Shown: positions 1-22,639 of the stretch, piece by piece
How positions within the stretch are numbered: the first letter of the stretch is position 1
Layout: every line of letters begins with the position of its first letter
From: Nitrospirota bacterium
Lineage (GTDB): Bacteria; Nitrospirota; UBA9217
Reading direction: 5' to 3'
DNA: 22,822 bases
NCBI GenBank assembly: GCA_963741205.1
Contig: CAVUHW010000025.1
Span: forward strand, 1-22,822
Made by a program: the position numbers and the translations under genes
Notes under the pieces: model-generated
The model's input: the letters and a program-made list of their open reading frames with translations, nothing else
Told to the model about the DNA's origin: nothing
Database searches by the model: none

Positions 1-299
1 CAACGATCAACTTCATCAACCCGTAACAAGCGGTGTCCTTCGAAAACGGTCAATATTTCCAGGCTATTTTTATTTATTCTGTAGACAATTCGATATTTTT
101 TAAAAATCAATTCCCGTATATCAGGATTGGAGATTTCCGGTACCGTTCTTCCGATACGAGGTTCGCCGGGCAGTACAGACTCTGCATGGGCCACGATCTC
201 ATCGACGAATTTTGCAGCCCGTTCCGCATTGTCTTTTGCAATGAAATCCTCGATTCCCGTCAATTGCCGGAGGGCTTCACGTGTCCAGAGTATTTTCAT
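1..299 (-). CDS. RelE/ParE-family type II toxin (runs to window edge; not in ORF track)
   Basis: Hand translation from ATG at 299: MKILWTREALRQLTGIEDFIAKDNAERAAKFVDEIVAHAESVLPGEPRIGRTVPEISNPDIRELIFKKYRIVYRINKNSLEILTVFEGHRLLRVDEVDR, then TG at the edge. It has the typical RelE/ParE pattern (W..A...L..I..FIA.DN, GR.VPE, RELI...YRIVY) and lies just downstream of the antitoxin. Confidence 0.88.
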   Translation of the reverse strand, partial: MKILWTREALRQLTGIEDFIAKDNAERAAKFVDEIVAHAESVLPGEPRIGRTVPEISNPDIRELIFKKYRIVYRINKNSLEILTVFEGHRLLRVDEVDR

Positions 300-305
300 G
301 CGGGT

Positions 306-595
306 TTATTCCCTGGCTCTTCTGGAAGATAATGCCGCCCTGAGCTCTTTCGCAGAGTATGTTTTCCCGCTATCGGCATCCGCTATCCCCCTGCCGACGG
401 AATCAAGAAATGTTTTCTGTATACCAATTCGTCGTAGTCTTCCGGCGACAGGAGAACCCCGGCTGGTTTGCCGTTCTGGGTAATGATCACGGGATGCCCC
501 GTACTCTGGAGGCTTTTGAACCACTTGGACAGGCTTGTCTTGAATTCGGCAATGGGGACGATATCGTTTTTGATGGAAATTGTTTTCAGTGGCAT
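306..595 (-). CDS. Phd/YefM-family antitoxin (one frameshift near 410)
   Basis: AGGAG SD precedes ATG 595. MPLKTISIKNDIVPIAEFKTSLSKW...PVIITQNGKPAGVLLSPEDYDEL joins the other frame FLDSVGRGIADADSGKTYSAKEL...RARE*. Confidence 0.88.
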
Positions 596-13788: not shown

Positions 13789-14121
13789 CTACGTGATATC
13801 CTCAATCGTGACCACGGTGGCGGCGAGAAGGCCGGAGATGAGTTCGAACCCGCCGCACGGACGCGCTTTCCGGTCCTGGGCGAAGTCGCAGTCTTGCTCA
13901 CGGAACTCGCAGTCGCCGCAGACCCGCTTTATGATCAATTCCCGGACTTCGCGAGCGAGGCCCTGACTGCGCTTCTCTTCGAGTGACAGGTTCCGGCCCG
14001 AGTCGATCAGCCGTTGGATGACAACAGCGCCGCGGCACAGGAGTTCTTCATTCCTGTCCGGTTTATAATAATGGCAGTACGGCAGGCAAAGCGTTTGGAC
14101 AAGAGCGGCATTTTTTTTCAT
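13789..14121 (-). CDS. Cys-rich hypothetical protein (7 Cys), possibly metal/Fe-S binding
   Basis: CLPYCHYYKP...LLCRG...CGDCEF...DCDF...PCGG; fills the gap and has an extended -10 just upstream. Confidence 0.72.
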   Translation of the reverse strand: MKKNAALVQTLCLPYCHYYKPDRNEELLCRGAVVIQRLIDSGRNLSLEEKRSQGLAREVRELIIKRVCGDCEFREQDCDFAQDRKARPCGGFELISGLLAATVVTIEDIT

Positions 14122-14170
14122 CGCTCTCTGATTATAACAAAATCGAATTCGTGGTGCTATAATAAACGCT
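14122..14170. promoter_or_regulatory. Back-to-back extended -10 promoters driving two leaderless genes
   Basis: Minus strand TGTTATAAT (14139-14131) lies 9 nt before ATG 14121. Plus strand TGCTATAAT (14155-14163) lies 7 nt before ATG 14171. CGAATTCG sits between them. Confidence 0.65.
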
Positions 14171-15301
14171 ATGAGTTATTATTTATCCCGTCGGGCCGTC
14201 CTCAAATGGCTCGAAATCCCCTCCATTTATCAAATTGCAAAGGACGAGCTCTATGAGCTCGACGGCGACTCTTTCCGCTTTTTGCAGAATTGTGCGGCAA
14301 AGGACGGCTGCTCGTCAAAGGACGGGGCGTTCATCGATTATTGCATGGATGAGGGGTTGCTTACCACGGAGAAGGTGGTCGTCCAGCGGCCCCCTCTTAA
14401 GGAGGCCCCTGAACCGTCTCTCAGGTACCTTGAACTGCAAATAACAGACACCTGCAACCTTAGATGTAAACATTGCTATCTCGTCGAGGAATCACATAAG
14501 GAACTCTCGCCAGGGGAGGTGAACAAGGCCCTGAAGGAATTCGAGGCAATGCAGGGTCTGAGGGTGCTCATCACCGGCGGGGAGCCGCTCATGCACGGCA
14601 AGTTTAATGAAATCAATGAAATGCTCCCTGATTTTTTTATCAGGAAGGTCCTGTTCTCGAACGGCTTGCTTTTGAAGAAGGACATCCTCAGTACGCTGAA
14701 AGTGGATGAGATCCAGATCAGCATCGACGGGATGGAGCAGGCCCATGACCTGGTCCGCGGGGCCGGAACGTTCAAACGCGCCATGGAAGCGGCGCATGAT
14801 GCGCTCGATGCGGGATTCGATGTTTCTATCTCGACCATGGTGCACCGCGGTAACCTCGCCGACTTCGACGCCATGGAGCGGCTCTTCAAGGGAATGGGCG
14901 TAAAGGATTGGACCGTGGATGTGCCCTGCGTGACCGGCCGCCTGAAGGAGAACGACGAGTTGTGCGTCAGTCCCGAGGAGGGAGGCAAATACCTGGGGTA
15001 CGGCTACGGGGGGGGCCTCCTTTCGTCCGGCCAGGGATATGGCTGCGGGCTCCACCTCATGTCGGTGATGGCCGATGGGAAGATTGCAAAATGCTCCTTT
15101 TTCCGTGACAACGCCGTAGGTTATATTGCGGACGGCCTTAGGGAGGCATGGAAAAAAATCCGGCCCGTGCGGCTCAGCGATCTATCCTGCGATTGCGAAT
15201 ATCTCGAGGTTTGTCGAGGGGGTTGCAGGTACCGGGCCGAACTTCTATCGGGGAAAAACGGCAAGGACCTTTACCGCTGCACGCTCTATGGTATAATATA
15301 A
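14171..15301 (+). CDS. Radical SAM/SPASM-domain protein with an N-terminal extension (putative peptide maturase)
   Basis: CNLRCKHC, ITGGEP and QISIDG motifs; SPASM-type C..V.ADG.I.KC and CDCx5Cx3C...C; about 80 aa before the rSAM core. Confidence 0.92.
   Translation: MSYYLSRRAVLKWLEIPSIYQIAKDELYELDGDSFRFLQNCAAKDGCSSKDGAFIDYCMDEGLLTTEKVVVQRPPLKEAPEPSLRYLELQITDTCNLRCKHCYLVEESHKELSPGEVNKALKEFEAMQGLRVLITGGEPLMHGKFNEINEMLPDFFIRKVLFSNGLLLKKDILSTLKVDEIQISIDGMEQAHDLVRGAGTFKRAMEAAHDALDAGFDVSISTMVHRGNLADFDAMERLFKGMGVKDWTVDVPCVTGRLKENDELCVSPEEGGKYLGYGYGGGLLSSGQGYGCGLHLMSVMADGKIAKCSFFRDNAVGYIADGLREAWKKIRPVRLSDLSCDCEYLEVCRGGCRYRAELLSGKNGKDLYRCTLYGII
15270..15297 (+). promoter_or_regulatory. Putative promoter for the peptide gene, inside the last rSAM codons
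   Basis: TTTACC-16-TATAAT with TG extension (TGGTATAAT 15289-15297). Confidence 0.5.
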
Positions 15302-15392
15302 AGGTATTTATTAAACTTCATCCGGGCTTGGGCTTGTGTTCTTTTTGAGAGCCATCCTTCATGCTTGACCATTTCGGAAAGGAGGCAGTGCA

Positions 15393-15455
15393 ATGACGAT
15401 CAAAAAAGTGACGAAAAAAATGGCCGTTACCTGCAAGTGCAAGAGCTCCTGCTGA
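15393..15455 (+). CDS. 20-aa Lys/Cys-rich peptide, putative RiPP precursor
   Basis: AAAGGAGG (15378-15385), a 7-nt spacer, then MTIKKVTKKMAVTCKCKSSC*; lies between the rSAM gene and a terminator. Confidence 0.75.
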   Translation: MTIKKVTKKMAVTCKCKSSC

Positions 15456-15485
15456 TTTTCAGCTTCCGATTCAGTACTGGACCGC

Positions 15486-15524
15486 AAAAGAGCCCGGCAA
15501 ATTCATGCCGGGCTCTTTTATTTT
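15486..15524. terminator. Bidirectional intrinsic terminator
   Basis: AAAAGAGCCCGGCA-AATTCA-TGCCGGGCTCTTTT-ATTTT between convergent genes. Confidence 0.88.
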
Positions 15525-15593: not shown

Positions 15594-15869
15594 CTATGCG
15601 GCTTTCCTGCTGAATACTTCCCGTTCCTCGAAGTTTTTGATGAACTGAGCAACCTGGAAACCCAGATACACGCACTTGATCCCGTTCATACATTCGTCGG
15701 CGTCCTGTTTATCAAGGTGGGTGGTCAGTACTTCCGTTCCGCGCTTGAACGTCAGGATGTAGGCGTTTTTCCTCTCATCGAAATCGAGGCCGACCGAAAA
15801 ATTATGTTCCCTGATTTCAGGATACATTTCAAAGACCTTATCTTTCAATGCAACGTTGGTGTATGTCAT
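15594..15869 (-). CDS. Hypothetical protein (91 aa)
   Basis: AGGAGG SD, protein-like composition and a C-x5-C pair (ECMNGIKCVYLG); follows the ferritin-like gene. Confidence 0.78.
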   Translation of the reverse strand: MTYTNVALKDKVFEMYPEIREHNFSVGLDFDERKNAYILTFKRGTEVLTTHLDKQDADECMNGIKCVYLGFQVAQFIKNFEEREVFSRKAA

Positions 15870-15975: not shown

Positions 15976-16464
15976 TCAACCGCCTTCCACGATGCCCCGT
16001 TCCTCCCACATGAACCAGTTTCCTGTGTCGGAAAGGAACTCATAGGTGTTTGCAAAAATATCGTAATGCTGCTCTTCCTCCTTGATCAACCGTTCCAGCA
16101 GCGCTTTTTCTTTGTCCGTCTTCGCGTGGGCCAGCGTCTTTTCGTAGAACTCTTTTCCTTCCTTTTCCATCTGCATGGCGATCTTGAACGCCTCAAGTTC
16201 GTCGGCCGTAGCCTCAACTTTTTTCATCATCTCGTTTTTCATGGTCTCAAAGACCGTCTTGACGTTATGCAAGGGGCTTACGTCCTTGTGCGTTATGTTG
16301 AGACCTTTGATCAGCCGGGAGATCAGCTCAAGATGCCTTTTTTCGTCTTCCGTGATCGTCTGAAACATCTTTTTCCCGGCAGGGTACTTCGTTTTCTGCG
16401 CAGCCTCGGTATAGAAAGATATTGCGTCGGTTTCCATCTTCATTGCGATTTCCAGGGCATCCAT
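15976..16464 (-). CDS. Ferritin-like / rubrerythrin-family protein
   Basis: Duplicated AMxME...FY and EDEKRH / EEEQH di-iron motifs; GAGGAGG SD. Confidence 0.9.
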   Translation of the reverse strand: MDALEIAMKMETDAISFYTEAAQKTKYPAGKKMFQTITEDEKRHLELISRLIKGLNITHKDVSPLHNVKTVFETMKNEMMKKVEATADELEAFKIAMQMEKEGKEFYEKTLAHAKTDKEKALLERLIKEEEQHYDIFANTYEFLSDTGNWFMWEERGIVEGG

Positions 16465-16731: not shown

Positions 16732-17855
16732 TTACTTTTTCGTTTTGTCTCCGAACAGTTCCTTTACCTTATCGAAAAAGCCCTTCGTCAGGGGCGTCGA
16801 CTCTTCCGAGTTCAGACGTTCGAATTCCTGGAGCAGTTCCTTCTGTTTCGCTGTCAGTTTGGTCGGGACTTCGACGTTGATCCTGCAGATCTGGTCTCCG
16901 GACCCGCCCCCGCGAAGGTTGGGAAAACCCTTTCCCCGGAACCTGAACGTTTGGCCCGGCTGGGTGCCGGCGGGTATTTTCAGTTTCGCATTGCCGCTGA
17001 GCGTCGGCGCATCGATCTCCGTGCCGAGCGCCGCCTGGATAAAGCTGACCGGCACCTCGCAGATGATGTCCTGACCCTCGCGCTTGAAGAGTGGATGGTC
17101 CTCGACCGTAAGGAACACGTACAGATCGCCGGGGGGGCCGCCATAGGAGCCGATCTCACCCTCTCCGGAGAGGCGGATCGTGTTGCCGGTTTCTACTCCG
17201 GCCGGGATCTTCACCGACAGCGTCCGTTCACGCTCTATGCGTTTCCGTCCGCCACAGGTGCTACAGGGATCGGTGATGACCCTGCCTTCTCCCCCGCAGC
17301 GCGAGCAGGTCCGGCTGATGCTGAAAAATCCCTGCTGCGTCCGGATCTGCCCCGCTCCCTGGCAACCCGGGCAAACCTTAATGCCGTCCTTGGTTTTTGC
17401 ACCGCTGCCGTCGCAGTCAGGGCAGCGCTCCCAGCGGGGAACACGGATCTTCGTCGCCGTGCCGAACGCCGCTTCTTCGAAGGTTATCTTGAGATTGTAA
17501 CGCAGGTCGTCACCGGCCGTGGCGCGGGCCCGCCCCTGCCCGCCTCCGAAGAACTCGCCGAAGATGTCGCCGAAGATGTCGCCCATGCCGCCCATCCCGG
17601 CCCCGAATCCGCCGAACCCGGGCCCCGCGCCCTGCGCGCCCGGCGCTACGCCGAACTGGTCGTAATAGCCCTTTTCTGAGCGTCGGACAGGACTTCGTAG
17701 GCCTCGTTGATTTCCTTGAACTTCTCTTCGGCGGCCTTGTTGCCGGGATTTTTATCGGGATGATATTCGTGCGCAAGTTTCCGGTAAGCGCGCTTGAGTT
17801 CGGCCTCGGTCGCATTCCTGTGCACGCCGAGCAGTGCGTAATAATCTTTCGCCAT
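16732..17855 (-). CDS. dnaJ: Chaperone DnaJ (frameshift near 17668)
   Basis: J domain with HPD, G/F region, four CxxCxGxG-type repeats and the C-terminal domain. Confidence 0.96.
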
Positions 17856-17905
17856 AACGTCCTTCTTCAATCAATTTAAAGGAACTGCTCAGGTATCAAT
17901 AGTTC

Positions 17906-18027
17906 GTCGTCCCCGAATGCCTTCATCGGGGACCCAGCCTGCGCCCAGCGTTTACAAGTGGGGTAGCGCGAGTGCAGGGGTGTCTTTTAGAATCTCTGGA
18001 TTCCCGATTAAAGCTTTCGGGAATGAC
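17906..18027. repeat. REP-like inverted pair, family B
   Basis: GTCGTCCCCGAATGCCTTCATCGGGGACCCAG ... CTGGATTCCCGATTAAAGCTTTCGGGAATGAC; each arm is palindromic and the arms are inverted relative to each other. Confidence 0.65.
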
Positions 18028-18057
18028 GGCCTGAAAGAAGACCATGAGAAGTTGTCA

Positions 18058-18111
18058 TAAAAAAGAGGATAGCAGGCGCTCCTCATGCGGATCCGTCCCT
18101 GCTATCCTCTT
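18058..18111 (-). terminator. Terminator/attenuator hairpin after dnaK
   Basis: 14-bp inverted repeat AAGAGGATAGCAGG/CCTGCTATCCTCTT, followed by a T-run on the minus strand. Confidence 0.7.
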
Positions 18112-18124
18112 CAATCGTACACGG

Positions 18125-20051
18125 TTACTTCTTGTCCTTGTCCACTTCCTCGAACTCGGCATCCACGACCTTCTCGCCTGGCTTGGCGCCGTCGCCTTCG
18201 GCCGCACCGGATGAAGCATCCGGGCCCGGCTGTCCCTGCCCCTTGTTCATCTTGGAGTAGACCTCTTCGGCGAGCTTATGGGACGCCTTCGAGAGCTCGG
18301 CGACCGCCTTCTTGATGGCGTCGACATCCTGGCCGTCCTTGACCGCCTTTGCCTGTTCGAGCGCCTTTTGGATGTCCGCGCGCTCGGACTCGGTCAGCTT
18401 GGAGCCGTAATCGGCCACGGACTTCTCGACGGAGTAAATGAGCGTGTCCACTTCGTTCCGCGCCTCGGCAATTTCCTTCTTCTTCTTGTCTTCGGCCGCA
18501 TGCGCCTCAGCCTCTTTTATGGCCTTGTCGATCTCGTCCTTGCTCATGCCGGATTGACGCCGTGATCTTGATGGACTGTTCCCTGCCCGTTCCGAGGTCC
18601 TTGGCCATGACGTGCACGATGCCGTTCGCGTCGATGTCAAAGGTCACCTCGACCTGCGGGATGCCGCGCGGCGCCGGCGGGATGCCCACGAGTTCGAACC
18701 GCCCCAGTGTTTTGTTGTCCGCGGCCATTTCGCGCTCGCCCTGGAGCACATGGATGGAGACCGCGGTCTGGTTGTCCGAGGCCGTGGAGAAGACCTGGCT
18801 CTTTTTGGTCGGGATCGTGGTGTTCCGCTCGATGAGGCGCGTGGTCACGCCTCCCAGGGTCTCGATGCCGAGCGACAGCGGGGTCACGTCCAAAAGCAGG
18901 ACGTCCTTCACCTGGCCGGTCAGGACCGCGCCCTGGATGGCCGCGCCGATCGCCACCACTTCGTCGGGGTTCACACCGCGGTGAGGCTCTTTCTTGAAGA
19001 AATCCTTCACCGTGGAGATCACCTTCGGCATGCGCGTCATGCCGCCCACGAGGACCGCCTCGTTGATCTGATCAACGGTCTTGCCCGCGTCGTTGAGCGC
19101 CTTCCTCACCGGGTCGATGCTCTTTGCGACCAGGTCATCAACGAGCTGCTCGTATTTGGCCCGCGAAAGCTTGTACAGAAGGTGCTTCGGTCCGCTTGCG
19201 TCCGCGGTGATGAAGGGGAGGTTGATCTCCGTCTCCATGACCGTGGAAAGTTCTATCTTGGCCTTTTCCGCCGCTTCCTTGAGCCGCTGGAGCGCCATCT
19301 TGTCCTTCTTCAGGTCGATGCCCGAATCCTTGAGGAACGATTCGGCGAGCCACTTGATGATGCGGTCGTCGAAATCGTCGCCGCCCAGGAAGGTGTCGCC
19401 GTTGGTGGACTTCACCTCGAACACCCCCTCGCCCAGTTCCAGGATGGAGATATCGAAGGTGCCGCCGCCCAGGTCGTAAACCGCGATGGTCTCGTCCTTC
19501 TTCTTGTCGAGACCGTAGGCCAGCGACGCGGCCGTGGGCTCGTTGATGATGCGCAGCACGTTCAGGCCCGATATCCTTCCGGCATCCTTGGTCGCCTGGC
19601 GCTGGCTGTCGTTAAAGTAGGCAGGCACGGTGATGACGGCGTCCGTCACCTTTTCTCCGAGATAATCTTCGGCCGTCTGCCTCATCTTCTGCAGGATCAT
19701 GGCCGAGATCTCCGCCGGGCTGAAGACCTTGCCCCGTATCTCGACGTGGGCGTCGCCGTTGTCCGCCTTCACGATTTTGTACGGCAGGTGCTTTCTCGCC
19801 TCCTGCACCTCGGCCGTGTCATACTTACGCCCGATGAGGCGCTTGATCGAGAAGATGGTATTGTCCGGGTTGGTGATGGACTGCCGCTTGGCGATCTGTC
19901 CCACGAGCCGCTCGCCGCTGTCGGTGATGGCCACGACCGACGGCGTGGTCCTGCTCCCCTCGGAGTTCGCGATCACGACCGGTTCTCCGCCTTCCATCAC
20001 GGCGACACATGAGTTTGTCGTACCTAGATCGATTCCTATAACTTTTGCCAT
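18125..20051 (-). CDS. dnaK: Chaperone DnaK (frameshift near 18553)
   Basis: [24 protein letters not shown] and PAPRGIPQ motifs; the C-terminus VVDAEFEEV is in the second frame. Confidence 0.97.
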
Positions 20052-20125
20052 AAAAGCCTCCTTCAAGATGTTGATCGACCGCGGACAACAGCCACGTAAG
20101 CCGTTATCCGCAAGCCGGTGACTTC

Positions 20126-20761
20126 CTATAAATCCGTCTGATCACACGCCGCGCTTTCTTCTTCCGATGCAGCCTGCGCTCCCGCCGGCCTCTTTGCGAC
20201 GCCGACCTTCGCGTGGCGCAGGACCTTGTCGTGATACCAGTACCCGTCCTGGAGCACCTGCACCACCGTGTTCTCCGGCGCCTCCGTCGTGGCCACCTGC
20301 ATTACGGCGTCGTGCTTCGACGGGTCAAAGCATTCGCCTTCCGCCGTGAACGGCTTGACGCCGAACTTTTCAAGGATGTCCCGAAACTGCTTGTAGACCA
20401 TGTTCCACGCCCTGCTGGAGTCCGCCATTGGCTTCACCCGTCTCTCGGGCATGCTTGAGCGCAAGCCCCAGATGGTCGACGACGGGGAGCAGTTCAAGGG
20501 CAAGTTGTTCGTTCGCGTACTTGCGGAAGTCGGCGAGGTCGCGCTGCATGCGCTTGCGGTAATTTTCAAAATCGGCATAGGTCCGCAGATACTTCTCGTT
20601 CGCCTCCGCCGCCTCCTTCTTCTGCTGCTCCAGCTCATGAGAGAACTTCTCGATCAGCGCCGCCGTCTCATTCCCCGCCGTCTCATTCCCGCGTCTCCGT
20701 CGGCTTCAGCGGCGGCCGCAACGACATTTTCTTCGCTTGAATCGCTGTGATGTTTCTTCAT
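20126..20761 (-). CDS. grpE: Nucleotide exchange factor GrpE (at least two indels)
   Basis: ATG overlaps the hrcA stop. [14 protein letters not shown] is in one frame and FDPSKHDAV...[16 protein letters not shown] in another; contains a 15-nt tandem duplication near 20660-20691. Confidence 0.93.
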
Positions 20762-21804
20762 CTCTCTAAACCCCTTTGAAACCGTTCACCCAAAAGCTTC
20801 GTCAACAGCTTTGACGTATAATCCACGACTTGAATAACCTGTCTGTACTGCATCCTTGTTGGCCCGATCACCCCAAGGGTACCCACGACATTCGCGCCAG
20901 CCTGGTAGCTGCCCACCACCATGCTGCACCCCTGCATCTCGAAATAGGGGTTTTCCGACCCGATGAAGACCTTGATGCCCTGCGCCGCCACGCTCCGGTC
21001 GAGGAGCTTCAGCAGCTTGTATTTGTCCTCAAAGGCCTTGAACAGCGACCGCATCTGTTCGACCGTCGCGAACTCCGGTGTTTCGAGCATCTGCGAGGCG
21101 CCGCCGATGTACACTTTCTCGTTTTCCCGTTCCTGGACCTCCAGGCTGGCGCGGTAGGTCTCGTCCATGAGCTGGGTGAAAACGCGCTTCTCTTCCCGCA
21201 TTTTTTCGACCAACCGCTGCCGGACCTCGTTCAGGGTCCAATGCGCCAGCTCGTCGTCCAGATAGGCGCTGAACCGGTTCAGGTCCTGCTGCCGGATGCT
21301 CTCGTCAAGCTCGATGAGCTTGTTCTGCACAATGCCGCTCTCGGTCACAAAGATGATCAACACCTGCTGGCCTCGCAGGCGGACAAACTCAACATGCCGG
21401 TACTTGGTCTCTGATTCGGTCGGCGCGACCACCACCCCGCGCAATGCGACAGCGTTGCCAGGAACCTGCTCGCTTCCTCCATCAATGTCGTCGAGGTCTT
21501 CCCCATGCAAAGCGGGCGCCTGCCGAAACTGGTCTCCGAGATCCTCGGGTTCGTTCTCGATGCTGATCAGGCTGTCGATATAGTAGCGGTAACCCAGATC
21601 CGTCGGTATTCTGCCGGCTGAGGTATGAGGATGGGTCAGGAACCCCATTTCCTCGAGTTCTGCCATGATGTTCCGGAGGGTAGCGGAACTCACGCCGAAA
21701 TCATATCGCTTGACCAGCACATTCGAACCGATCGGCATGCCGCTGGCAATATAGCTGTCTATGACAGCTTGCAGTACTTTCCTATTTCTTTCATCCAGCT
21801 CCAT
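20758..21804 (-). CDS. hrcA: Heat-inducible transcription repressor HrcA
   Basis: SSATLRNIMAELE, PHTSAGRIPTD.GYRYY and GVIGPTRM.Y motifs; compensating indels around 21443-21487. Confidence 0.96.
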   Translation of the reverse strand: MELDERNRKVLQAVIDSYIASGMPIGSNVLVKRYDFGVSSATLRNIMAELEEMGFLTHPHTSAGRIPTDLGYRYYIDSLISIENEPEDLGDQFRQAPALHGEDLDDIDGGSEQVPGNAVALRGVVVAPTESETKYRHVEFVRLRGQQVLIIFVTESGIVQNKLIELDESIRQQDLNRFSAYLDDELAHWTLNEVRQRLVEKMREEKRVFTQLMDETYRASLEVQERENEKVYIGGASQMLETPEFATVEQMRSLFKAFEDKYKLLKLLDRSVAAQGIKVFIGSENPYFEMQGCSMVVGSYQAGANVVGTLGVIGPTRMQYRQVIQVVDYTSKLLTKLLGERFQRGLER

Positions 21805-21867
21805 ACAAATCACTATCCTACGTAGAGGAAAAATCGCGATCTCGCCGGAAACCACTTTCCGCACGCC

Positions 21868-21894
21868 TTAGCACTCACTATGATAGAGTGCTAA
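21868..21894. promoter_or_regulatory. CIRCE operator
   Basis: Perfect TTAGCACTC-N9-GAGTGCTAA. Confidence 0.97.
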
Positions 21895-21895
21895 T

Positions 21896-21924
21896 AATTT
21901 AACATAGAGGCTATAGAGTGTCAA
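21896..21924 (-). promoter_or_regulatory. Sigma70 promoter of the hrcA operon
   Basis: TTGACA-17-TAAATT with TG extension, directly upstream of CIRCE. Confidence 0.85.
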
Positions 21925-22027
21925 GCAGTTATTTTATTAACGTATTTTCCCTCTACATTTCGTAGGTTCAGGGTTATTCGAAAGGCAATTTTTCGACTTG
22001 CCTATTATAGGGAATCCCTCTATCAAC

Positions 22028-22061
22028 AAAAAAGCCATCCCGAAAGTTGTCGCGGGATGGC
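22028..22061 (-). terminator. Intrinsic terminator of hsp20
   Basis: GCCATCCCG/CGGGATGGC stem followed by TTTTTT on the minus strand. Confidence 0.75.
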
Positions 22062-22122
22062 GATTACCGTTACTCCTTAACCTGACAACGAAGTCTGAGC
22101 AGGTTGCTCGGGAAATCTAACC

Positions 22123-22639
22123 CTAGGCAGCTTTCTTGGCCTCCCCTTCAATCATCTTTTTATCCTCTTTCGAGGTCTCGATCACGATCTTTCCGCGCCT
22201 TGGAGATCGCGGGTGCCGGGACCGTTACCTCGAGAACCCCATTCGCAAATTTCGCCTTCAACTCGTCGGTCTTTACGCCTTCAGGCAGCGCAAAGTGCCG
22301 CTCAAAAGTGCCATAGCTGATTTCCCTGTAAACATAATTTTCTTCCTTTGTATCTTTCTCATGCTTCCGTTCACCTTTAATGATCAGTTCCCTATCGGTG
22401 ATGCTCACATCAAGGTCCTTCTCGTCAACTCCGGGAAGTTCAGCCCGGAATACAAGTTTTCCGTCTTTCGTGTAGGATTCAACCGAAGGCGCCCACACAC
22501 CTTTATATTCGGTCGGAAGTTCTCCTCCCAGGAACCGGTCAAACAATCTGTCCATTTCGCGCTGCATCGATCGCATTTCCTCAAAAGGATCCCATCTTTT
22601 CGTGATTCCGAAGGGATCCCACCTCATCAGGCTTTTCAT
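22123..22639 (-). CDS. Hsp20/alpha-crystallin small heat-shock protein (frameshift near 22190)
   Basis: AELPGV, REISYGTFERHFALP and AKFANGVLEV motifs; AAGGAGG SD. The corrected tail is RKIVIETSKEDKKMIEGEAKKAA*. Confidence 0.93.

Follow-up and report, generated by a model that had tools for sequence, protein, structure and literature searches.

Among the described peptide-maturing enzymes, SkfB (with its precursor SkfA) and StsB (with StsA) join a RiPP recognition element (RRE; RiPP, ribosomally synthesised and post-translationally modified peptide), a radical S-adenosylmethionine (SAM) domain and an auxiliary cluster domain. Here we describe a locus of similar outline in a 22,822-nt stretch of DNA from a Nitrospirota bacterium (contig CAVUHW010000025.1 of assembly GCA_963741205.1, positions 1 to 22,822; hereafter the window), in which a gene for a radical SAM/SPASM enzyme is followed by a gene for a Cys-containing 20-aa peptide and faces a divergent gene for a Cys-rich protein, here called X. 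Catalytic-site positions 1-4 are alike in the three enzymes, and StsA has a CxCxC core (PMC10288494; here and below, papers are cited from excerpts of their texts), comparable to the short Cys core of the peptide described here. SkfB differs in carrying a Twitch domain and in its 55-aa precursor (PMC6231123), whereas the window enzyme has a full SPASM domain and a putative precursor of 20 aa. The rings of StsA are nested and join Cys to Gly residues downstream of the Cys, while the peptide of the window ends in Cys. The window system also differs from both in lacking a recurring exporter and in having X, and its enzyme scores 65.4 against a cut-off of 625 for StsB and 55.7 against 300 for SkfB. 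The SCIFF or ranthipeptide systems (CteA-CteB, Tte1186) are alike in a fused domain that is an RRE in CteB and probably one here, in a seven-Cys SPASM domain with a possibly open auxiliary cluster I (Aux I) site, in a Cys-rich peptide with a basic leader, and in their occurrence in anaerobes. They differ in having six Cys in about 45 aa against three in 20; the SCIFF model TIGR03973 (cut-off 50) found no match at the locus and 14.5 bits at best in the genome, the catalytic site of CteB (F/F/T/S/H/Q) is unlike that of the window enzyme, and X is extra. Finally, NxxcB, GggB and QmpB form short, unnested rings compatible with terminal Cys donors (PMC9389541), but these enzymes are streptococcal and their products secreted, and the related WgkB model gives the window enzyme 93 against a cut-off of 650.

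The 20-codon open reading frame (ORF) of the window is a conserved, real gene, and its peptide is very probably the substrate of the adjacent enzyme. Together with X, the two appear to belong to the RRE/radical SAM kind of RiPP systems, undescribed as far as the literature was searched. Our preferred reading, which we hold with roughly even confidence, is a three-part peptide-maturation system of anaerobes. The enzyme may perform Cys thioether chemistry, a proposal for which we judge the balance to be about level. Joint retention or loss of the three genes in anaerobic Nitrospirota, including cases in which they are unlinked, suggests that the peptide is enzyme-modified, so far undescribed, and employed by the cell itself, not as an antibiotic.

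The peptide gene had been proposed in the initial annotation from the window alone, as a Shine-Dalgarno (SD) sequence, a 7-nt spacer, a 20-codon ORF and a strong terminator following the radical SAM/SPASM gene, and direct reading and folding bear out all of these elements. By the terms of the annotation, a lack of conserved peptides beside homologous enzymes would have refuted the proposal; conservation is what we found. The peptide lies 3′ of the enzyme in 5/5 of the first homologous loci; a first scan detected it in 72/95 loci (some of them duplicates), to which inspection added three copies and one truncated copy. When no motif was imposed, an ORF of 15-30 aa that contained three or more Cys and was preceded by an SD was present within 400 nt downstream of the enzyme in 69/87 distinct homologous loci, against none on the opposite strand and one in a window further on, the latter scored only at loci extending that far. 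Across 128 distinct genes encoding 100 distinct peptides, mean entropy in the core is 1.08 at the third codon position against 0.22 and 0.17 at the other two; the search pattern contributed to the selection of the core, but far less to that of the leader. Residues conserved with free synonymous change include I3, K5, V6 and K8, as well as C14, K15, C16, K17, S19 and C20. The peptide thus consists of a basic, beta-strand-like leader followed by the C-terminal core C14-K-C16-K-x-S-C20, and an SD-like motif precedes 128/128 of the genes. Cys20 is terminal in all but one variant, the exception (L189) adding a Thr, a pattern that is partly a product of the search. In type 1 sactipeptides the Cys donors stand upstream of their acceptors, an arrangement that this peptide does not show, and nested hairpin rings are impossible because the last Cys is the C-terminal residue. 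As the annotation had also supposed, the peptide is neither SCIFF nor another named precursor, with no NCBIfam match for 34/34 peptide variants. It is single copy in the source genome (38.6 bits with a hidden Markov model; next match 11.8), and among the differences listed for four thin sets of DNA contigs, the four within the peptide gene are synonymous and five indels are intergenic (each from 1-2 low-depth contigs). Among the sequencing runs listed as containing the sequence, none is of RNA, and its share is small in all. Two other genomes, G020 and G029, hold two peptide copies each, one beside the enzyme and one elsewhere; their contamination is 3-4%, and a binning artefact is possible.

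The elements of the locus are as follows.

13789-14121, minus strand: partner protein X, 110 aa, Cys-rich, divergent from the enzyme gene, of no named family
14122-14170, both strands: putative bidirectional promoter region, read from motifs
14155-14163, plus strand: extended -10 box TG-C-TATAAT, 7 nt 5′ of the enzyme ATG
14139-14131, minus strand: extended -10 box TG-T-TATAAT, 9 nt 5′ of the ATG of X
14171-15301, plus strand: radical SAM/SPASM enzyme, 376 aa, an ORF of the window
14171-14390, plus strand: RRE-like N-terminal domain of the enzyme (about residues 1-73), from the structural model and weak family matches
15270-15297, plus strand: promoter-like site TTTACC-16-TATAAT for the peptide, within the last codons of the enzyme gene
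15378-15385, plus strand: Shine-Dalgarno sequence AAAGGAGG, with a 7-nt spacer to the peptide ATG
15393-15455, plus strand: putative precursor peptide MTIKKVTKKMAVTCKCKSSC, 20 aa, with ATG at 15393 and TGA at 15453-15455, 91 nt beyond the enzyme ORF
15486-15519, plus strand: intrinsic terminator of 14 pairs, with T-runs flanking both sides

The terminator folds at -25.7 kcal/mol (z -7.6), a value that 0/200 shuffled sequences equalled, and it is probably bidirectional, since T-runs stand on both sides of it. The initial annotation was right to pair the radical SAM gene with the peptide; its two-gene extent overlooked the divergent Cys-rich ORF at 13789-14121.

The three genes were surveyed in the same 301 Nitrospirota genomes. 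The enzyme is present in 129/301 genomes (as a single match in nearly all of them), the peptide pattern in 126/301 and X in 124/301; all three occur together in 118/301, while 168/301 have none. Among enzyme-positive genomes, 124/129 have the peptide and 121/129 have X. In three of the five that lack the peptide, the gene lies at the end of a contig, and the other two (G191 and G200) have neither peptide nor X. Both of these encode Arg at Gln182 of the enzyme, a residue that is Gln in 182/185, and their enzymes (L142 and L143) fall on separate FastTree branches with supports of 0.83 and 0.93, so that the losses are apparently two separate events. The same Gln182Arg change is seen in the enzyme P0400. 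A peptide-only match in G126 is due to chance. Linkage is dispensable for this association: in family f16, which by the likeness of its sequences to the named protein P0002 is probably Thermodesulfovibrio, 11/11 genomes have all three genes unlinked, and in the single-contig genomes G062, G102 and G289 they lie more than 50 kb apart. Such retention without linkage, together with paired loss, is hard to get from ancestry alone. A selenocysteine variant at the loci lacking a peptide was considered and not seen, the peptide gene simply being elsewhere in the genome. Close relatives are Nitrospirota, and the enzyme family is also present in records of Methanosarcinales, Archaeoglobi and Promethearchaeota, and X in Desulfobacterales. 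Locus L189, which groups with a Methanosarcinales protein, has the peptide, while L200 and L202 have a short X and no peptide in the available DNA. No full-length member of the enzyme family was found in 80 viral loci, nor in plasmids at E<=1e-40.

The enzyme matches PF04055 with 72.6 bits (cut-off 29.5), its radical SAM motif C95/C99/C102 is invariant in the family alignment, and fold matches agree with the radical SAM/SPASM superfamily. Its C-terminal cysteines (C292-x10-G-x4-C308, C340-x-C342-x5-C348-x3-C352 and C370) follow the seven-Cys SPASM motif CX9-15GX4C-gap-CX2CX5CX3C-gap-C (PMC6231123), with CxC at C340-C342 in the window enzyme and Cx2C in many relatives; Pfam PF13186 gave no score on the window enzyme. 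Seven SPASM cysteines are invariant and no eighth is, C253 being present in 123/185 aligned rows. The same is true of CteB, which binds a Cys of its substrate at an Aux I site that is open (PMC6231123). When the family profile was compared with PDB, SkfB came first (E 7e-29), followed by PqqE (E 2e-25) and then CteB. In the profile alignment the catalytic-site residues Y103, T135, F162 and S184 equal the four of SkfB, and the Y/T/I/S of StsB resembles them (PMC10288494). Across the family the six residues read Y, T/S, F/L, S, G/T/A/S, F, a placement that rests on the text of PMC10288494 and on the SkfB profile alignment.

The annotation had regarded the extra N-terminal residues of the enzyme as an RRE. 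In the model of the enzyme (predicted local distance difference test, pLDDT, 94; N-terminal region 78-96) this part has four strands (3-5, 9-13, 17-21, 26-29) and two long helices (32-41, 52-60), where an RRE has three of each; the closest structures are SkfB and SuiB, and alignments that span this part were obtained with SkfB (7..364; Z 26.2, root-mean-square deviation (rmsd) 5.1, 326 aligned) and SuiB (3..376; Z 26.1, rmsd 4.1, 347 aligned). These results agree with the proposal, as do PqqD-bearing clusters in the ESM Atlas, at 0.90 for the N-terminal region. On the other side, all matches to PqqD/RRE families are below their cut-offs (act_def_assoc_B 14/63, TIGR03859 PqqD 3/63, PF05402 2/63), and a sequence search of PDB with the N-terminal profile was empty. 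Taken together, the N-terminal ~73 residues are probably a compact RRE.

The enzyme falls into none of the named families listed. It matched 81 NCBIfam families, and all 25 listed are under their cut-offs (225 to 725), the best with 106 bits against 400; ScmE, AhbD, NirJ, WgkB, MftC, StsB, SbtM, SkfB, GeoRSP and ACGX are among them. AhbD (93.6 bits) and NirJ (83-85 bits) stand near the top of these matches, and the ORF has a weak Rfam Thr_leader match (25 bits against a gathering threshold of 55, E 0.097). Hence the enzyme might be an ordinary Ahb/NirJ-type cofactor enzyme and the ORF an attenuator leader or a chance neighbour. We consider this extremely improbable. The AhbD and NirJ scores are far under cut-offs of 500-650, and a true AhbD (515.8 > 500) is encoded on contig C8 of the same genome, which in practice excludes a haem-pathway role for the enzyme, the assignment that the annotation had named as one that would refute its proposal; no AhbC over cut-off was found in this 84% complete genome. 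An attenuator would be expected to precede a conserved co-directional operon behind its terminator. Instead, the next gene of the window is convergent and the frames downstream of the peptide belong to 38 families in 115 loci (with crude frame calling). The genome-wide co-occurrence, moreover, holds without linkage.

The seven Cys that are invariant in X fall into two related units, C12-x3-C16...C29-x-G and C68-x2-C71...C78...C89-GG. Several enzyme homologues of ~500 aa are fused to an extra N-terminal Cys-rich domain homologous to X (BLASTP E 9e-12, 1e-15), and other lineages have a short, one-unit X with three invariant Cys that corresponds to unit 2 (hhalign 98%). X has no match in Pfam or NCBIfam, the PDB sequence search gave none and the ESM Atlas yielded hypothetical clusters only. 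Its model (pLDDT 81) gave no Foldseek match at E<=0.001, an absence that is no proof of a new fold, and no clear fold match with VIA-align (best Z 3.7, rmsd 3.2, 75 aligned). A predicted complex of enzyme and X scored 0.00 against a mark of 0.32, a value that, with no controls folded, counts neither for nor against such a complex. Judged by its homology to the fused domain and its gene associations, X is the third component of the system. A quite improbable alternative is that X itself is the protein substrate (like CrpA or QhpC), or that the peptide is crosslinked to X, with the peptide as a chaperone or second subunit. Its seven invariant Cys, its presence in 121/129 enzyme-positive genomes and the precedent of CrpC, whose Cys-rich protein substrate receives ranthionine links (PMC13692751), are in line with such a role. 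However, several lineages have X and the enzyme in one fused protein, and the two share a leaderless promoter, which fits a catalytic helper, and it is the peptide, not X, that bears strong expression signals.

The three genes stand in several layouts. In the window's family, X and the enzyme are divergent and the peptide follows; elsewhere there are peptide-X-enzyme operons (L183, L190, L193), peptides before a fused X-enzyme gene (L185-L188) and the order short X, enzyme, peptide (L175, L177, L179). A -10 box lies 4-9 nt 5′ of the enzyme ATG in 52/67 distinct upstream regions, with an SD in 1/67, and a mirrored box lies 6-10 nt 5′ of the ATG of X in 27/29 divergent loci. Because the box is so near the ATG and no SD precedes it, the enzyme and X look leaderless. 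Meanwhile, an extended -10-like box lies within 150 nt upstream of 92/125 peptide genes, against 9/125 control windows (mostly coding DNA), and a hairpin with a T-run follows 89/125. The box overlaps the last codons of the enzyme at linked loci and is present at unlinked peptide genes too. We infer that the enzyme and X would be low-level catalysts and the peptide an abundant substrate.

Several observations weigh against our reading. The RRE assignment rests on sub-threshold sequence matches and a whole-chain fold alignment. Positions 5-6 of the catalytic site (S/G/T/A309, F310) differ from the Q, L of SkfB, the K, L of StsB and the H, Q of CteB, and the four residues that are shared are probably common among SPASM enzymes. 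His284, eight residues 5′ of C292, could be a fourth Aux I ligand and would then close the open site; yet the lineage of the window has Leu there. Genome G154 (99% complete) has the peptide and X and no orthologous enzyme, six genomes have enzyme and peptide with no X detected and two have X alone, and in 21/57 metagenome loci (L146-L202) the available DNA contains no peptide gene. Co-occurrence is also partly shared ancestry. SbtM, moreover, is a precedent for a SPASM enzyme whose Cys chemistry yields a thiooxazole instead of a thioether (PMC9204691).

His284, which could be a ligand or a base, is conserved in 172/185 and 111/113 aligned rows and is present in relatives at <=90% identity. The window enzyme has Leu at this position (codon 15020-15022), as has the 97.6% identical P0344. 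An assembly error is unlikely, since P0344 carries nine other differences and likewise Leu. As Leu284 is real for this lineage, activity of the window enzyme is not to be assumed.

The precedent of SbtM leads to a second account of the same parts, in which the enzyme would oxidise the Cys C-beta to give a thiooxazole or thioamide, the product would be an intracellular chelator of copper or another soft metal, and X would load the metal or act in the manner of MbnC. Methanobactin or bufferin chemistry would thereby have a counterpart that needs no oxygen. We hold this to be unlikely. SbtM, a thio/selenooxazole maturase, is alike in being a SPASM enzyme that acts on Cys in anaerobic Deltaproteobacteria, and MbnA in its short precursor with a Lys/Arg-rich leader and a terminal Cys cluster; MbnA precursors have 23-35 aa with Cys in their last residues (PMC3621798). 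On the other hand, SbtM acts on Gly-Cys and MbnA cores contain C(G/A/S)(S/T), neither of which is found here, where Lys follows C14 and C16 and C20 is terminal; the listed peptides contain no in-frame TGA, and the SbtM family score is 56.5 against a cut-off of 350. Methanobactins are made by MbnBC, unrelated oxygen-dependent enzymes (PMC9060507). The locus has a radical SAM enzyme in their place and lacks the core motif; MbnB was not searched genome-wide. Among neighbours, one unlinked peptide gene (L139, G175) is divergent to a copper-type P-ATPase gene and L189 has its peptide near DUF302/Usp genes, which would suit a metal-related product. The neighbours of unlinked peptide genes are otherwise varied, a copper-type P-ATPase occurring in only 1/22 loci, and no sister peptide in a copper-export operon was found in the source genome. 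No transporter, exporter, TonB receptor, protease, dedicated peptidase or client enzyme family recurs among the listed neighbours of the homologous loci; the annotation had already noted that neither a protease nor an exporter is adjacent in the window.

Mycofactocin (MftC/MftA) and pyrroloquinoline quinone (PqqE/PqqA/PqqD) biosynthesis suggest a third possibility, which we also regard as unlikely, namely that the peptide is a cofactor precursor. The enzyme would act on its terminal residues, for example closing a ring after oxidative decarboxylation of Cys20, and general proteases would then release a small molecule, with X as a second biosynthetic or electron-transfer subunit. The likeness lies in an invariant C-terminal core, here with a free carboxy end, in a probable RRE dependence and in a housekeeping-like distribution (one peptide gene in most genomes, retained unlinked, with archaeal records); PqqE is second by profile, and MftC decarboxylates a C-terminal residue (PMC10288494). 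In contrast to MftA and PqqA, the peptide has neither a Val-Tyr end nor a Glu/Tyr pair such as that of PqqA (PMC9389541), no dedicated peptidase or client family recurs, and the scores are under cut-offs (mycofactocin maturase 77 against 265).

Both accounts bear on the metabolism of the hosts. We surveyed dsrA and cdhC in 80 of the 301 genomes, chosen by hand, 35 system-positive and 45 negative. One or the other marker is present in 35/35 positive genomes and the system in 0/18 genomes lacking both, a restriction that would agree with a chelator of anaerobes. Each marker is also present in 25/45 negative genomes, which speaks against a cofactor obligately serving either pathway. From this pattern the system is confined to anaerobes and dispensable for Dsr and Wood-Ljungdahl metabolism, and either pathway as an obligate client was rejected. 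In the source genome, dsrA is read in two frames and the cdhC match contains two TGA (G000:C8:197604-198750; G000:C22:114751-115554); the assembly looks error-prone.

Based on these findings, we propose the following course for our preferred reading. The 20-aa gene would supply the dedicated substrate, and a promoter, SD and terminator of its own would allow production in excess. The basic leader of the peptide would add a beta-strand to the RRE of the enzyme, in the manner of CteA on CteB. The enzyme would cleave SAM and abstract a hydrogen within the invariant C-K-C-K-x-S-C tail, while a substrate Cys binds the Aux I cluster, to which the protein would contribute no more than three Cys ligands. 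The reaction may then yield as many as three thioether rings from Cys-S to carbon, at -2 Da each. They would be short, similar to those of NxxC and type-2 sactipeptides (described in PMC9389541), for example with acceptors at i-3 (residues 11, 13 and 17). X, predicted to be present at low level and either regulated jointly with the enzyme or fused to it, may be a metal or Fe-S accessory, as its Cys pattern and fusion suggest, passing electrons or handling the metal of the product. The product itself would stay intracellular and take part in the handling of metals or redox state, as a housekeeping function that is not essential.

The 5′ untranslated regions (UTRs) of many peptide genes have a further feature. 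A hairpin with an AUGAA-type loop is present in 42/128 peptide 5′ UTRs, outside the window's family (shuffled mean 1.1), for example at L042, L044, L070, L135, L144 and L160, within the 80 nt before the peptide ATG. Its stem covaries at 5/6 pairs (14 hand-picked positives). A second hairpin uses the SD as its 3′ stem and so sequesters it; taken by itself it occurs in 38 against 16 in the control, and both hairpins occur in 30/128. They are absent from 15300-15392 of the window, and no Rfam family matched in the five loci scanned. As a regulon, the AUGAA hairpin showed no enrichment in the source genome; another scan gave more matches than its reversed control, with their contexts unread. We take the tandem hairpins to resemble CsrA- or ANTAR-type dual-hairpin control, but with another loop.

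Some neighbouring genes recur within single lineages. In one lineage (L170, L172, L173, L174, L177, L191) a circularly arranged ATP-grasp-like gene, possibly an extra tailoring enzyme, lies directly 3′ of the peptide. The Fe-S assembly genes nifS/nifU adjoin the enzyme in two lineages (L173-L175; L089), and a second radical SAM/SPASM gene with an unnamed partner of ~115 aa stands beside the system at L183:2014-3349 and L186:2587-4125. In the window, a 91-aa ORF of no Pfam or NCBIfam family (15594-15869, minus strand) converges on the peptide terminator and stands behind a rubrerythrin-domain gene (15976-16464). Further on (16732-22136), dnaJ-, dnaK- and grpE-like frames appear to be split across ORFs, which likewise suggests an error-prone assembly.

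Searches of the literature by core motif, variants and topic found no description of the system in open-licence texts; subscription papers or supplements could list it. The excerpted precursor supplement of PMC10288494 holds two CKCK rows, both unrelated, and the RRE-Finder supplements, searched as text, hold none.

These findings have implications for the discovery of similar systems, since the peptide escapes gene callers and the whole system would escape mining that starts from transporters. The system would be a compact and testable radical SAM RiPP: its precursor is very short, its obligate partner belongs to no named family, and its distribution is housekeeping-like. The enzyme family seems to be present in Thermodesulfovibrio that can be cultured, so that chemistry and phenotype could be tested. 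A bolder reading, which we consider doubtful, is that the three genes yield a metal or redox cofactor that is new, derived from the peptide and kept within the cell. In this reading non-thioether chemistry (Cys C-beta oxidation, C-terminal decarboxylation or Cys-Lys links) would give an oxygen-independent equivalent of methanobactin, common to bacteria and archaea that reduce sulfate or use the Wood-Ljungdahl pathway. X would be an undescribed three-Cys metal/Fe-S module that loads or reduces it, and in part of the phylum an RNA-binding protein (possibly X) would control translation of the peptide through the tandem AUGAA hairpins. If the chemistry is indeed other than plain thioether formation, it would constitute a new radical SAM reaction and possibly provide a new cofactor or metal ligand for anaerobes.

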